A stretch of 64,000 nt of DNA, from the NCBI GenBank assembly GCA_963817955.1, contig CAWFQK010000002.1, positions 960,001 to 1,024,000 on the forward strand, read 5' to 3'. Each line of letters begins with the position of its first letter. Position 1 is the first letter of the stretch. The position numbers were made by a program, and so were the translations under genes. Below are positions 35,778-44,788 of this stretch, piece by piece. Source of the stretch: an uncultured Gemmatimonadaceae bacterium (lineage in GTDB: Bacteria > Gemmatimonadota > Gemmatimonadetes > Gemmatimonadales > Gemmatimonadaceae). A model generated the notes under the pieces. The model was given only the letters and a program-made list of their open reading frames with translations, was not told where the DNA came from and made no database searches.

Positions 35778-35809
35778 GGGACACGAGACACGAGACACGG
35801 GACACGAGA
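35778..35809 (+). repeat. G(G/A)GACAC heptamer run
   Basis: Four units starting 7 bp after the stop codon. Confidence 0.85.
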
Positions 35810-36972: not shown

Positions 36973-37149
36973 GCACCGGTCGGCGAGGTTCGGGTGTCGA
37001 GCGGTGAGTTGTGTGCTGTGAGTATCTAAAAACGCACCACGCACAACGCACAACTGGAAACTCGAACCTCGCCGACCGGTGGGCCGACCGCTACGGAGCA
37101 GCCAGCGACATCCAGCCGGTCAACACCCCGGAGCCCCGTCCACGCTGCA
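36973..37149. repeat. Back-to-back copies of the dispersed ~110-bp element (partial on -, full on +)
   Basis: Heptamer arm plus CTCGCCGACCGG core; the full copy matches 39841-39950 and the reverse of 10840-10950. Confidence 0.85.
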
Positions 37150-37333
37150 CGGTCGCCGCTCTACCGGCTTACGAGCCAGACACCCTGGTGCTGGTGACCT
37201 TCGCAGTTCTTGCGTAGGCGCTCTAATGACCTTCTCGCGGGTTCGGGGACACGGGTCTGACGTACCTCTCTACTATCTACTAACGCCGAAACGCTCAAAA
37301 CATGTCGGTTTTGGTCAATCGGTCACATTGGCC

Positions 37334-37371
37334 CTTGCGCTGACCCCCCAATTTCGGAACTAATATATAGG
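37334..37371 (+). promoter_or_regulatory. Promoter-like motif upstream of 21-bp array 1
   Basis: CTTGCGCTG-N18-TAATATATAGG; same layout at 60151-60114 (-). Confidence 0.45.
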
Positions 37372-37400
37372 ACTACGATCATCGCGGGACGAACGGGCGG

Positions 37401-38449
37401 CGAGACGGGATCGCTCGTGCCACGCATCGAATGCGAATAGGTCGAGACGGGATCGATCCTGGCACGCTTCAAATGCGAACGGGTCGAGACGGGATCGATC
37501 GTGGTGAGATCGGATTCGAACGGGTCGAGACGGGATTCGAGCGTGTCGAGATGGGATTCGAGCGTGTCGAGCAGGGATCCTAACGCGGCGAGATGGCATT
37601 CGATCGTGCCGAGCAAGGATCGCAACGCGGCGAGATGGCATCGCAACGCCGCGAGATGGAATGCGATCGTGCCGAGCGAGCATTGCAACGCCGCGAGGTG
37701 GCATTGCAACACGCCAAGCAGGGATCCTCGCCTGCCCAGATCGGATCGCAACGGATCAAGCAGGGATCGCCGCGCGTCGAGACCGAATCGCAACGGGGCG
37801 AGCGAGGATCGCAGCGCGTCGAGACGGAATCGCAACGCCGCGAGCAAGGATCCCAGCGGGGTGAGGCAGGATCCTCGCGTGCCGAGCAGGCATTGCAACC
37901 GGCCGAGAAGGGATGCGATCGCGTCGAGATCGCATCGCCTCGCTGCGAGACGACACCCGAACGCGTCGAGACGGCACTCCAACTCGCCGAGACGTAATCG
38001 GAGCGCGTCGAGCTGAGATTCCAACGCGTCGAGACAACACTCGAGCGCGTCGAGATGGCACCCCAACTCTGCGAGACACAATCGGAGCGCGTCGAGGCGG
38101 CACCCGAGCGCGCCGAGATGGGATTCTAACTCGTCGACCGGGCACCCCATCGGGTCGAGCTGGAATCCGAACTCGTCGAGACGCAATCGGAGCACGTCGA
38201 GAGAGCACTCCAACGCGGCGAGACGGCAGTCGAGCTCATCGAGATGGAACCCTCGCGCGTCGAGATGCCACTGCAACGCGTCGAGACGCCACGCCACCTC
38301 GCTGAGGCGGCACCCCAACTCTGCGAGACGACACCCCAACGCTCCGAGACGACAGCGCAACTCTGCGAGACCACATCGCAAATCCCCGAGACGACATCGC
38401 AACTCCCCAAGACGACATCGCAACTCCCCAAGACCACACCGCAACCGCT
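37401..38449. repeat. Degenerate tandem array, 21-bp period, about 50 units
   Basis: Approximate consensus CGAGACGGCATCGCAACGCGT; 37505-38449 is exactly 45x21 bp with no indel, preceded by five units with 42-bp dimer structure. Confidence 0.95.
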
Positions 38450-38540
38450 CGAGGCGGTTGCTCCCGTTTTTCGACCCCGGCGCGTCGGGCGCCCGTCGGG
38501 GGGCAGCTCTCTTTCGGCGCCCCGTTGGCCGGGAGGCCAC

Positions 38541-39300
38541 ATGAAATACCACGAAGGCAGTATGCTCGAAGCGCTCCGCCGCATCGACACCTTTCTCGAT
38601 GCCCAACCCACGGCGTTCGCCCCGCTCCTGGGTTCTGCCGCTCGGCAGGAGCTCACCGACACCATCACCCAACTCAGCGCGTCCGCCACTGCTCAGGAGG
38701 TCGGTGGCCGCGCGAGCCGAGGAGGGACGTCGAAGCTGCGCGCGCTGCGCCTTGCGCTACGGATCCACCATATGGATCCCATCGCGGCGATCGCGAAGCT
38801 TCGGTTGCCGGCTGTTCCCGATTTTAGCTCCCTCACCACGCCGCGCTCGACCGTGCCGACGGAGCGACTGCTCGCTGCGGCGGCCGCAATGGGCGAGGCC
38901 GCGGCTCGGCACGTGGCGGTGTTCACGGCTAACGGGCTTCCGGCGGATTTCCTCGCGCGGTTGCAGGCGTCCGCGCAGGCGCTGCAGGACGCCATTGATG
39001 GGCGATCAGGGCAAACCGTGGTCCGAAGCGGGGCGACGGCCATCCCTGGCGGCTGAGGAGCGGCGTGGTCGCACCATCATCACGGTGCTCAACGGCTTGC
39101 TGCTGCCGTTGATCGGCGCCGATGCCGGCCTGCAGGCGGCATGGACCACGGCGAAGCGCGTCGCGCGCAAGCCGGGCGTCAAGATCGGCGCTCGCGCGAG
39201 CGCGGCACAAGCGGACGCCACCACGCAGGGCAGTACGGCGGCGCCAGCAACGCCGCCGGCAGCATCCACACCTCCGGCATCGCAGTTGCCGGCGGTGTAA
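38541..39300 (+). pseudogene. Array-associated helical hypothetical protein (about 252 aa if repaired), one frameshift near 39040
   Basis: RBS GGAGG before ATG 38541; the first frame stops at 39056, while similarity to the 59130-59590 paralog continues in the +1 frame to TAA 39300. Confidence 0.75.
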
Positions 39301-39333: not shown

Positions 39334-39367
39334 ACGCGAACGGCCGCCCTCGGGCGGCCGTTCGCGT
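39334..39367 (+). terminator. Strong hairpin, probable terminator of the array-associated gene
   Basis: ACGCGAACGGCCGCCC-TC-GGGCGGCCGTTCGCGT, 16-bp perfect inverted repeat; weak U-tract. Confidence 0.7.
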
Positions 39368-39457: not shown

Positions 39458-39713
39458 GCAGGATCAAGCGATCGGGACGACGGGTGACTGTCTTCAGTGA
39501 TCAGTGCGTGAGTCATCAGTCATCAGTCGCGCGGCAAGGCGACGGGTTCTCGCTCGGGCTGGCCTCCGTGGCCGCGCGTTTTATTTGGTGGTGGGTGGTT
39601 GCGGGTCGCTTCGCCCGGTCGAGGGCTGTCGGGGTCCTCAGTCACTGACGACTGATCACCTACGCACTGATGACTGACCACTGTCACCCGCCGTCCCGAT
39701 CGCTTGATCCTGC
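39458..39713. repeat. MITE-like segment with ~70-bp imperfect inverted arms
   Basis: GCAGGATCAAGCGATCGGGACG(A/G)CGGGTGAC... at 39458 and its inverse ending at 39713; inner arm ends are CAGTCAT-type heptamers. Confidence 0.8.
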
Positions 39714-39751: not shown

Positions 39752-39950
39752 AGAGATCCTTCGCTTCGCTCAGGATGACCGGCTTCGCTCAGGATGCCAG
39801 GCTGTGCTCAGGATGCCAGGCTGTGCTCAGGATAACAGGCAACGCACAACTCACAACTGGCAACTCGCACCTCGCCGACCGGCGGGCCGACCGCTACGGA
39901 GCAGCCAGCGGCATCCAGTCCGTCAACACCCGGAGCCCAATCCACGCTGC
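39752..39950 (+). repeat. REP-like half-site, four 19-bp GCTCAGGAT units, then a full copy of the dispersed element
   Basis: AGAGATCCTTCGCTTCGCTCAGGATGAC; GCTCAGGAT at 39768, 39787, 39806 and 39825; element at 39841-39950. Confidence 0.85.
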
Positions 39951-44696: not shown

Positions 44697-44788
44697 AGAG
44701 ATCCTTCGCTTTGCTCAGGATGACAGGCATCTCTCGTCCCGTGTCCCGTGTCCCGTGTCCCGTGTCCCGTGTCCCGTGTCCCGTGTCT
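44697..44788. repeat. REP-like half-site plus (GTCCCGT)7 microsatellite
   Basis: AGAGATCCTTCGCTTTGCTCAGGATGACAGGC; seven perfect heptamers at 44736-44784. Confidence 0.92.

Follow-up and report, generated by a model that had tools for sequence, protein, structure and literature searches.

A 21-bp-periodic array with fixed nucleotides upstream of an orphan gene family in a Gemmatimonadaceae genome: a probably non-coding element and a possible leader

Why should about a kilobase of DNA be built of units of exactly 21 bp that all differ from one another and still carry the same few bases? The question is raised by positions 37505-38449 of the stretch analysed here, where a tandem array precedes a gene that we call dn. 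The stretch (the window; 64,000 nucleotides) is C2:960001-1024000 of a 4.53-Mb, ~64% GC draft genome of an uncultured Gemmatimonadaceae bacterium, assembled in 9 contigs (C2 and C4 below are two of them); among sequencing runs it is listed for two of soil-metagenome DNA, at small shares (0.08 and 0.05), and for none of RNA. We found that the fixed bases are constrained as nucleotides. The long frame open on the opposite strand is most probably not a gene, and the role that we tentatively favour for the array is that of an untranslated leader of dn.

Fixed columns in an array of 21-bp units

Sliced into 21-bp rows from 37505, the plus strand gives 45 units with 0 indels, and 45/45 are distinct. 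The consensus is CGAGAyGGcATCGCAACGCGT, anchored by A3, G4 and A10 and, after them, by C17 and A15: A3 and A10 are present in 45/45 units, G4 and C17 in 44/45, C1 in 42/45, and A15 and G2 in 40/45 each. The weakest columns, 6, 21, 16 and 9, are nearly free. An earlier note, made from the sequence alone, had described this layout, with 45 indel-free units from 37505, invariant A3 and A10, mostly fixed A15 and C17, variable remaining columns and nearly unique units, and the row slicing bears it out. The true start of the array lies about five units further upstream, near 37400, since positions 37400-37504 of the plus strand hold two unit types alternating with a 42-bp period; with these five early rows included, the counts are 45/50 for A3 and 47/50 for A10.

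The 21-bp periodicity is far above chance. Tandem Repeats Finder reports periods of 21, 42, 63, 84 and 105 over the array, and the identity at lag 21 is 0.62, a value of at least 0.50 being reached by only 0.49% of random 231-nt windows of the same genome (n=20000). At lags of 7 and 14 the identity is 0.25 and 0.26, which is background, against the 0.62 at lag 21. The kinship proposed in the earlier note between the unit and the local GAGACAC heptamer (21 = 3x7) is not supported, because there is no 7- or 14-bp sub-period, and neither is a heptamer origin of the unit. The plus strand of the array has an excess of A over T (AT skew +0.22 to +0.35). CRISPR-type alternation of repeats and spacers is absent from the array, where the units are contiguous and all 45 differ; cas genes were not searched for.

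The array is part of a cassette that is present about 20 times in this genome. Seven other arrays of ~1 kb align to the window array at 72-79% identity and form class 1 with it (eight arrays in all). Class 2 comprises about eleven much more diverged arrays found downstream of copies of the cassette's upstream ('up') element; their consensus retains only ccAGatGGaAtt......GT. The fixed columns that the earlier note had singled out are kept in these homologous arrays. In the seven paralogous arrays, with no unit dropped, A3 is found in 248/250 units, G4 in 242/250, A10 in 240/250 and C17 in 235/250. A3 and A10 rank first among the columns of the class-2 arrays, too; for example, they occupy 44/50 and 46/50 units in an array where the phase was set from the printed rows and not by maximising A3 and A10.

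The fixed columns are under nucleotide-level constraint. In four close paralogue pairs, which give 166 unit comparisons per column, columns 1 to 11 show 9, 9, 0, 0, 3, 16, 7, 3, 11, 1 and 5 changes, and columns 12 to 21 show 11, 7, 7, 6, 13, 5, 8, 13, 15 and 14, the column mean being 7.8. With 0, 0 and 1 changes, columns 3, 4 and 10 are frozen between close paralogues. The rate of change in most other columns is close to that of synonymous sites in dn: arrays E (C4:1541811-1542837) and F (C4:245156-246180) are 91.4% identical, and the synonymous divergence (pS) of dn is 0.105.

The extent of the element is seen in paralogue G (C4:1120399-1121841), in which 666 bp (1473-2138 of the extracted locus), in the part equivalent to 37400-37504 of the window, repeat with a period of 41/83 bp and not 42/84 (16.1 and 8.0 copies, 81-89% matches), the units being alternately 20 and 21 nt long. 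In the 20-nt unit of the 41-bp period one base is absent between columns 10 and 15 and the core CGAGATGGnAT is intact, so the element is a core of ~11 nt, with two invariant A's seven bases apart, followed by a loose spacer of 9-10 nt. Unit spacings that are not divisible by 3 were also found in other class-1 arrays (41, 20, 61, 38, 39 and 43).

The open frame on the minus strand

An open frame of 449 aa, with heptads such as LRCRLGE, occupies 37323-38672 of the minus strand. Among the rivals to the leader explanation, the one that survives best, which we nevertheless consider unlikely, takes this frame for a fast-evolving heptad protein encoded divergently from dn. In this frame Leu codons have their middle T at A3 and A15; these two columns would then mark a/d-like positions, and the remaining residues would be free or under diversifying selection. 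Indeed, the frame spans the entire array, and in several paralogues it is likewise open across the array, with 0-1 stops against 4-16 in the other frames. A column-independent model expects ~33 minus-frame stops over 8 non-independent arrays, where 3 are observed, and 1.7-7.5 per array, where 0-1 are observed. GC content follows a three-phase pattern resembling that of codons (0.77/0.45/0.73, for example), and the Leu codon at columns 4 to 2 varies at its third base alone (CTC 39, CTT 4, CTG 1). The frame reads L-x-x-x-L-x-x with weak coiled-coil family hits, as do heptad coiled-coil proteins encoded by 21-bp repeats. Stops are scarce in all six frames of the class-1 arrays (the window copy has 0-3 in each, counted over 1131 nt), and an open frame therefore says little in favour of coding. 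As proof of coding it was rejected for class 1, the same model expecting ~2 stops in the window array, with P(0) = 0.13.

In contrast to such proteins, the evolution, codon usage, frame conservation and relatives of this frame oppose translation. The ratio of nonsynonymous to synonymous substitution rates (dN/dS) is 1.03-1.15 in the two most informative paralogue pairs and 0.89 and 1.11 in the other two; this range of 0.89-1.15 shows no purifying selection, against 0.16-0.41 for dn. The paralogue differences at codon positions 1/2/3 are 43/66/47, 65/78/58, 24/41/33 and 29/43/37, so that second positions change as much as third positions or more. The codon adaptation index of the frame, 0.48, equals the median of antisense frames (0.48), against 0.63-0.74 for real long open reading frames (n=148).

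The earlier note had held that protein selection alone is insufficient to explain the fixed columns, and the codon counts agree with it. C17 is fixed even though a variable codon has its third base there: 31/31 of the Ala/Pro/Thr/Val codons at this position end in G, where the genome uses G at 51-61%. A10 is, as had been pointed out, the first base of codons for dissimilar residues, with Ser, Cys, Phe, Leu and Trp all counted (TCC 13, TGC 13, TGT 8, TTC 5, TTG 2, TGG 2, TTA 1, TCT 1). Rare codons are fixed as well, with CGA in 14/16 Arg codons at one heptad position vs 6% genome-wide, CGT in 12/14 Arg codons vs 11%, and TTG in 20/32 Leu codons vs 10% genome-wide. By our reading a codon model does not account for the fixed columns, and the plus-strand frame read as ETASQRV-like is broken by 3 stops, in line with the original description.

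The frame is also poorly preserved between copies. In the class-2 arrays the a/d heptad pattern is lost and F-x-L is read instead, and the up element is read in different frames in class 1 and class 2. The 'protein' of paralogue G, with its 41/83-bp period, passes through all three frames of the same unit, and about half of the copies have a broken frame. By eye, no Shine-Dalgarno sequence stands before the sole start codon that does not overlap dn, and a terminator-like hairpin of the plus strand would fall in the N-terminal coding part. In related genomes, the six arrays with the strongest period have no minus frame that is open throughout and no plus frame that is consistently open; in the commonest related unit the homologous minus frame would, by reading, hold TGA in every unit. 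The predicted product has no true homologues in the two sets that were searched: 3/30 same-genus genomes give matches, all weak, and a search of 1.84 billion protein representatives gives 507 hits at E <= 1e-3, none of which falls below 1e-30. Six hits were inspected; unrelated tandem repeats, translated, account for five and a long repeat protein for the sixth. Judged on these comparisons, the minus-strand frame is most probably not a functional gene, and the array is most probably non-coding. This is a caution for annotation, as an open frame of 449 codons with neat heptads is here probably no gene.

The cassette, its hairpins and the dn gene

Each cassette comprises, in order, the up element of ~150 bp with an AT-rich box, 21-bp-periodic DNA, plus-strand hairpins with a T-run, a ribosome-binding site and dn. 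In the window the up element occupies 37247-37399 of the plus strand, at the 5' edge of the array, with the AT-rich box as its core at ~37352-37380 (TTTCGGAACTAATATATAGGACTACGATC). BLAST finds 21 copies of the element in the genome at 85-97% identity. The box is nearly invariant in 20/21 of them by alignment, 20/21 are followed by 1.0-1.4 kb of 21-bp-periodic DNA, and 15/21 have a dn homologue or remnant downstream. A conserved segment of ~90 bp sits between array and dn. In class-2 leaders, for example at C2:300180-300400, a second 21-bp block (GACGACCATTCCGTCATTCCC-like, T-rich and not A-rich) is found between the main array and the terminator.

Three hairpins of the plus strand lead from the array to dn. 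The first, H1 (38441-38471), uses the final unit of the array as its 5' arm and consists of a 9-bp stem (38441-38461) followed by TCCCGTTTTT; it is terminator-like by scan and is conserved in 8 class-1 paralogues, not in class 2. The second, H2 (38473-38515), has a 10-pair stem (38473-38503) and a T-rich run (38507-38515) and is also terminator-like. Across 15 paralogues 83.9% of its cells pair, one pair switching between C-G (6), G-C (4) and U-G (3) and another between G-U (8) and G-C (6); the first is a compensatory pair, and the 14 G-U/U-G cells of H2 can pair solely in plus-strand RNA. The class-2 H2, a GC-rich stem with AGTTTTCTTT, is called a terminator at 2 sites vs 0.1 expected in shuffles. 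The third hairpin, H3 (38525-38540), is small and abuts the dn start codon; GGGAGG (38531-38536), the Shine-Dalgarno sequence, lies within its loop and 3' arm, and 85.4% of its cells pair across paralogues. Over the 15 paralogous array-to-dn junctions used for the helix test, 80.3% of the cells of H1-H3 pair vs 36-46% with the partners slid; since the sequences are related and the structure was derived from them, this pairing is support and not proof. In one relative, moreover, two hairpins are folded from the ~95 nt that precede dn (plus-strand z = -4.2 vs -1.8 on the minus strand), the second being followed by UUUUUU ~10 nt before AAGGAG. We take these features as supporting evidence that the plus strand would be the acting strand. 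As they leave no room for a separate promoter, dn would be transcribed through the hairpins from upstream.

The dn gene (38541-39300, plus strand; ATG at 38541, preceded by GGGAGG) represents a Gemmatimonadota-restricted, all-helical family of ~250 aa, and its dN/dS between paralogues, given above, indicates a real gene. Compared with the full-length 252-aa copies, the gene in the window has a frameshift after about residue 167, its first frame ending at 39056 and the rest continuing to 39300 in another, a sign of either a pseudogene or an error of assembly. Continuous copies are found at C4:1540985-1541740 and C4:244382-245083. The dn start pattern was matched at 8/21 cassette loci, where five copies read 247-276 aa and the other three are cut short at 39-171 aa (171 aa for the window copy). 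At several loci without a match the start is mutated to ACG, and dn is missing entirely from C4:1120399 and C4:766; a failed match may mean either decay or merely a diverged start or ribosome-binding site. A truncated dn (residues 1-107, 83% identical) was also observed without an array at C2:888485-888805, inside a called 301-aa protein with Pfam hits to N-6 DNA methylase, the HsdM N-terminal domain and RhuM.

The family is multi-copy in 12/24 genus genomes and 2/16 order genomes, at 23-43% identity. A narrow dn alignment search found relatives on public contigs titled uncultured Gemmatimonadaceae, and a single dn sequence as query against public contigs gave no match. Pfam, NCBIfam, PADLOC and PHROGs contain no match to dn. 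The AlphaFold2 model (predicted local distance difference test score 85) is all-helical with two helices of ~55 residues; a Foldseek comparison with PDB returned nothing at E <= 0.001, just long helical bundles, and the Atlas neighbours are unnamed Gemmatimonadota clusters of hypothetical proteins.

By sequence comparison, the association of array and dn is conserved at genus level. A search with the array DNA in 40 relatives gave no match beyond the window's own genome. The 29 related dn loci with sufficient upstream sequence were scored for period: 22/29 reach a lag-21 identity of 0.5 or more in the 900 nt preceding dn, against 0/27 in the next 900 nt further upstream and 0/29 downstream, the random baseline of 0.49% being that of the window's own genome. 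The unit sequences in relatives differ (for example, TCCGAGATTCACTCAGCTCCG and CGTTCACTCGACGGTGTTCAC), and a single leader often has several blocks of different units; what is conserved is therefore the period, not the sequence. A related AT-rich box (..ATATAAGTAGAGAGG..) is found 540-890 bp upstream of dn in 13/29 related loci, and C exceeds G in the relatives' arrays, a strand asymmetry.

Possible roles of the array and surroundings of the cassette

The explanation that we favour, if tentatively, is that the array is an untranslated plus-strand leader of dn whose units would offer their anchors to a multimeric factor controlling read-through into the gene. The model spans the AT-rich box, 0.3-1.4 kb of 21-nt units, the hairpins, the Shine-Dalgarno hairpin and dn. 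From the architecture and orientation of the cassette, the nucleotide-level constraint and an evolution unlike that of a protein, we infer that transcription would begin at the AT-rich box and cross the array on the plus strand. Every 21-nt unit would then present A3-G4 and A10, seven bases apart, the rest drifting almost neutrally. A multimeric nucleic-acid-binding factor, possibly dn itself, would load on this multivalent track in 21-nt register, and its loading would set the transcription that passes the terminator-like hairpins into dn, as in attenuation. As promoter candidate we take the AT-rich box on the 5' border of the array, which is promoter-like; this role is a guess because the up element contains no sigma-70 consensus.

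Two known kinds of RNA come closest to such a leader. The Bacillus trp leader carries 11 (G/U)AG triplets that are bound by TRAP, a multimeric RNA-binding attenuation protein. Like it, the cassette has many evenly spaced tiny motifs (here GAG at columns 2-4, plus A10), a variable leader and a terminator hairpin before the gene. Unlike it, the spacing is 21 nt and not 5-6 nt, with 45-60 units over ~1 kb instead of 11. The triplets 2-3 nt apart that characterise TRAP targets are absent here, a TRAP-like gene was not sought, and binding to the array is wholly inferred. Sponge RNAs of the CsrB/RsmZ type carry repeated GGA motifs and are likewise non-coding RNAs of ~20-nt imperfect repeats with one short motif each. 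However, the array has no Rfam match and no hairpin-loop presentation (z = -0.2 to -0.7), its fixed motif is not GGA, and it is joined physically to the downstream gene. By analogy, the array would work most like these leader or sponge RNAs, in which a multimeric protein meets many copies of a tiny motif, and it is a member of neither group.

Besides the open minus frame and its codon-like features, several results weigh against this leader explanation. A sigma-70 promoter scan of the window cassette and of one related locus gave 0 sites in each, and in the window's own class H2 is followed by a weak T-run (CTCTCTTTC). Plus-strand array RNA shows no unusual folding (z = -0.67 and -0.23; -0.69 and -2.35 on the minus strand), which fits a single-stranded binding track and proves nothing. 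Rfam 15, including the CsrB/Rsm sponges, has no match to the array, and two chance-level hits outside it (E = 0.0076 and 0.15) lie far under the gathering scores. Structure comparison recognises no nucleic-acid-binding fold in the dn model. Finally, no unit motif is common across species, the words enriched in relatives being TTCAC/TCACT and not CGAGA, so that a single conserved binding factor is not implied.

If the leader explanation is correct, the array would be a kilobase cis-element in which the period and two anchor A's are under selection and nearly all else drifts, repeated ~20 times in one genome, with other units standing before the same orphan family in related soil Gemmatimonadaceae. 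It would be a natural case of a multivalent periodic binding track and would open a way into an uncharacterised protein family of a phylum that is abundant in soil and little studied. No similar element turned up in the full-text literature searches, which is not proof of its being unpublished; a passage in PMC3974934 describes a 53-kb repeat that is unrelated to the array.

After the minus-strand protein, the next explanation is that of a double-stranded DNA lattice with sites two helical turns apart, whose nucleoprotein track would be a roadblock, a silencer or an architectural element; we regard it as rather unlikely. The period stays at 21 bp as the sequence changes between paralogues and species. 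In addition, the tolerated variants of 20+21 = 41 bp and 83 bp correspond to 10.25-10.4 bp/turn and not to a multiple of 3, and the 11-bp core CGAGAyGGnAT followed by a loose 9-10-bp spacer would suit a binding site. However, the anchors A3, A10 and C17 are spaced by 7 bp and not by ~10.5, and are thus not on one helix face. The strand asymmetry, the fixed orientation to dn and the G-U-paired plus-strand hairpins point to the RNA level, and no candidate DNA-binding protein was found, dn having no such fold match.

The known DNA elements nearest to such a lattice are the iterons of plasmid replication origins, which are 17-22-bp direct repeats beside a rep gene. They share with the array direct repeats about two helical turns apart beside one gene, and paralogues that each have their own repeat sequence. 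They differ in having 3-10 near-identical units, against 45-60 diverged ones here. Moreover, the array is found at ~20 loci of one 9-contig draft (the plasmid status of the contigs was not examined), and dn has no match to Rep or any other Pfam/NCBIfam family.

It is improbable, on the sequences at hand, that each cassette joins a dn helical bundle to a private nucleic-acid track, dn or a partner polymerising with the A's as register marks, so that track and protein would co-diversify. If true, the cassette would represent a nucleoprotein switch or filament of a new kind, self-contained, multi-copy and confined to Gemmatimonadota.

Still less probable is a functionless minisatellite, growing and shrinking by slippage in a tolerant leader, whose fixed columns would be a by-product of recombination ability or of recent common descent. 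The near-synonymous rate of most columns, noted above for arrays E and F, would be expected of it, as would copy numbers that shift in steps of 21/42/63/84 bp and the decay of many cassettes, dn reading 247-276 aa at 5/21 loci (the rest mostly give no start match, maybe for a diverged ribosome-binding site). Against this, the units all differ (lag-21 identity 0.45-0.62), yet A3 and A10 survive in both classes, with 0-1 changes where 7.8 are expected. The 21-bp period is also kept upstream of dn at only 35-43% protein identity between genomes, where neutral minisatellites would lose it.

A plus-strand transcript cut into small RNAs of 21 nt or a multiple, with the fixed bases as processing or loading anchors and the variable ones as guides, is very improbable: it is suggested by architecture only (unique units, fixed anchors and a probable plus-strand transcript ending at a terminator), and there is no linked processing enzyme or Argonaute/Cas-type gene, the neighbours differing per locus, no repeat-spacer organisation and no Rfam match.

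A 34-bp palindrome (39334-39367) just past the dn stop is kept in paralogous cassettes and is probably the 3' hairpin of the cassette; it has many copies, with self-inverted BLAST matches of 94-100%. Further out, an inverted pair of ~110-160-bp elements (36976-37136 and 39839-39947) brackets the cassette. With 215 and 154 BLAST hits these are genome-wide repeats, and so lie outside the cassette proper. No neighbour genes are shared around the cassettes, the 24 flanking open reading frames that were scanned belonging to unrelated families that differ per locus. Given these unrelated flanking genes and the genome-wide repeats outside, the cassette is self-contained. A weak Rfam miRNA match at 36973-37082 probably reflects hairpin shape alone.

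Intergenic heptamer tandem repeats, such as the short tandemly repeated repetitive (STRR) sequences of cyanobacteria, have a counterpart in the true 7-bp runs of the repeat elements flanking the cassette, unlike in the array itself, which has no 7-bp periodicity. The bracketing elements contain AACGCAC x3.4 at 37031-37054 and GCAACTC x5.3 at 39839-39875. Other perfect or near-perfect heptamer runs in the window, at 44736-44787, 35780-35809, 39490-39528 and 39643-39683 (for example, GTCCCGT x7.4 at 100% identity), resemble the intergenic heptamer repeats of other phyla, and GGGACAC runs precede the up element in other copies of the cassette. Immediately downstream of the cassette, finally, positions 39768-39840 of the window hold 3.8 copies of a 19-bp unit (GCTCAGGATGACAGGCTGT) in tandem, with 88% matches.

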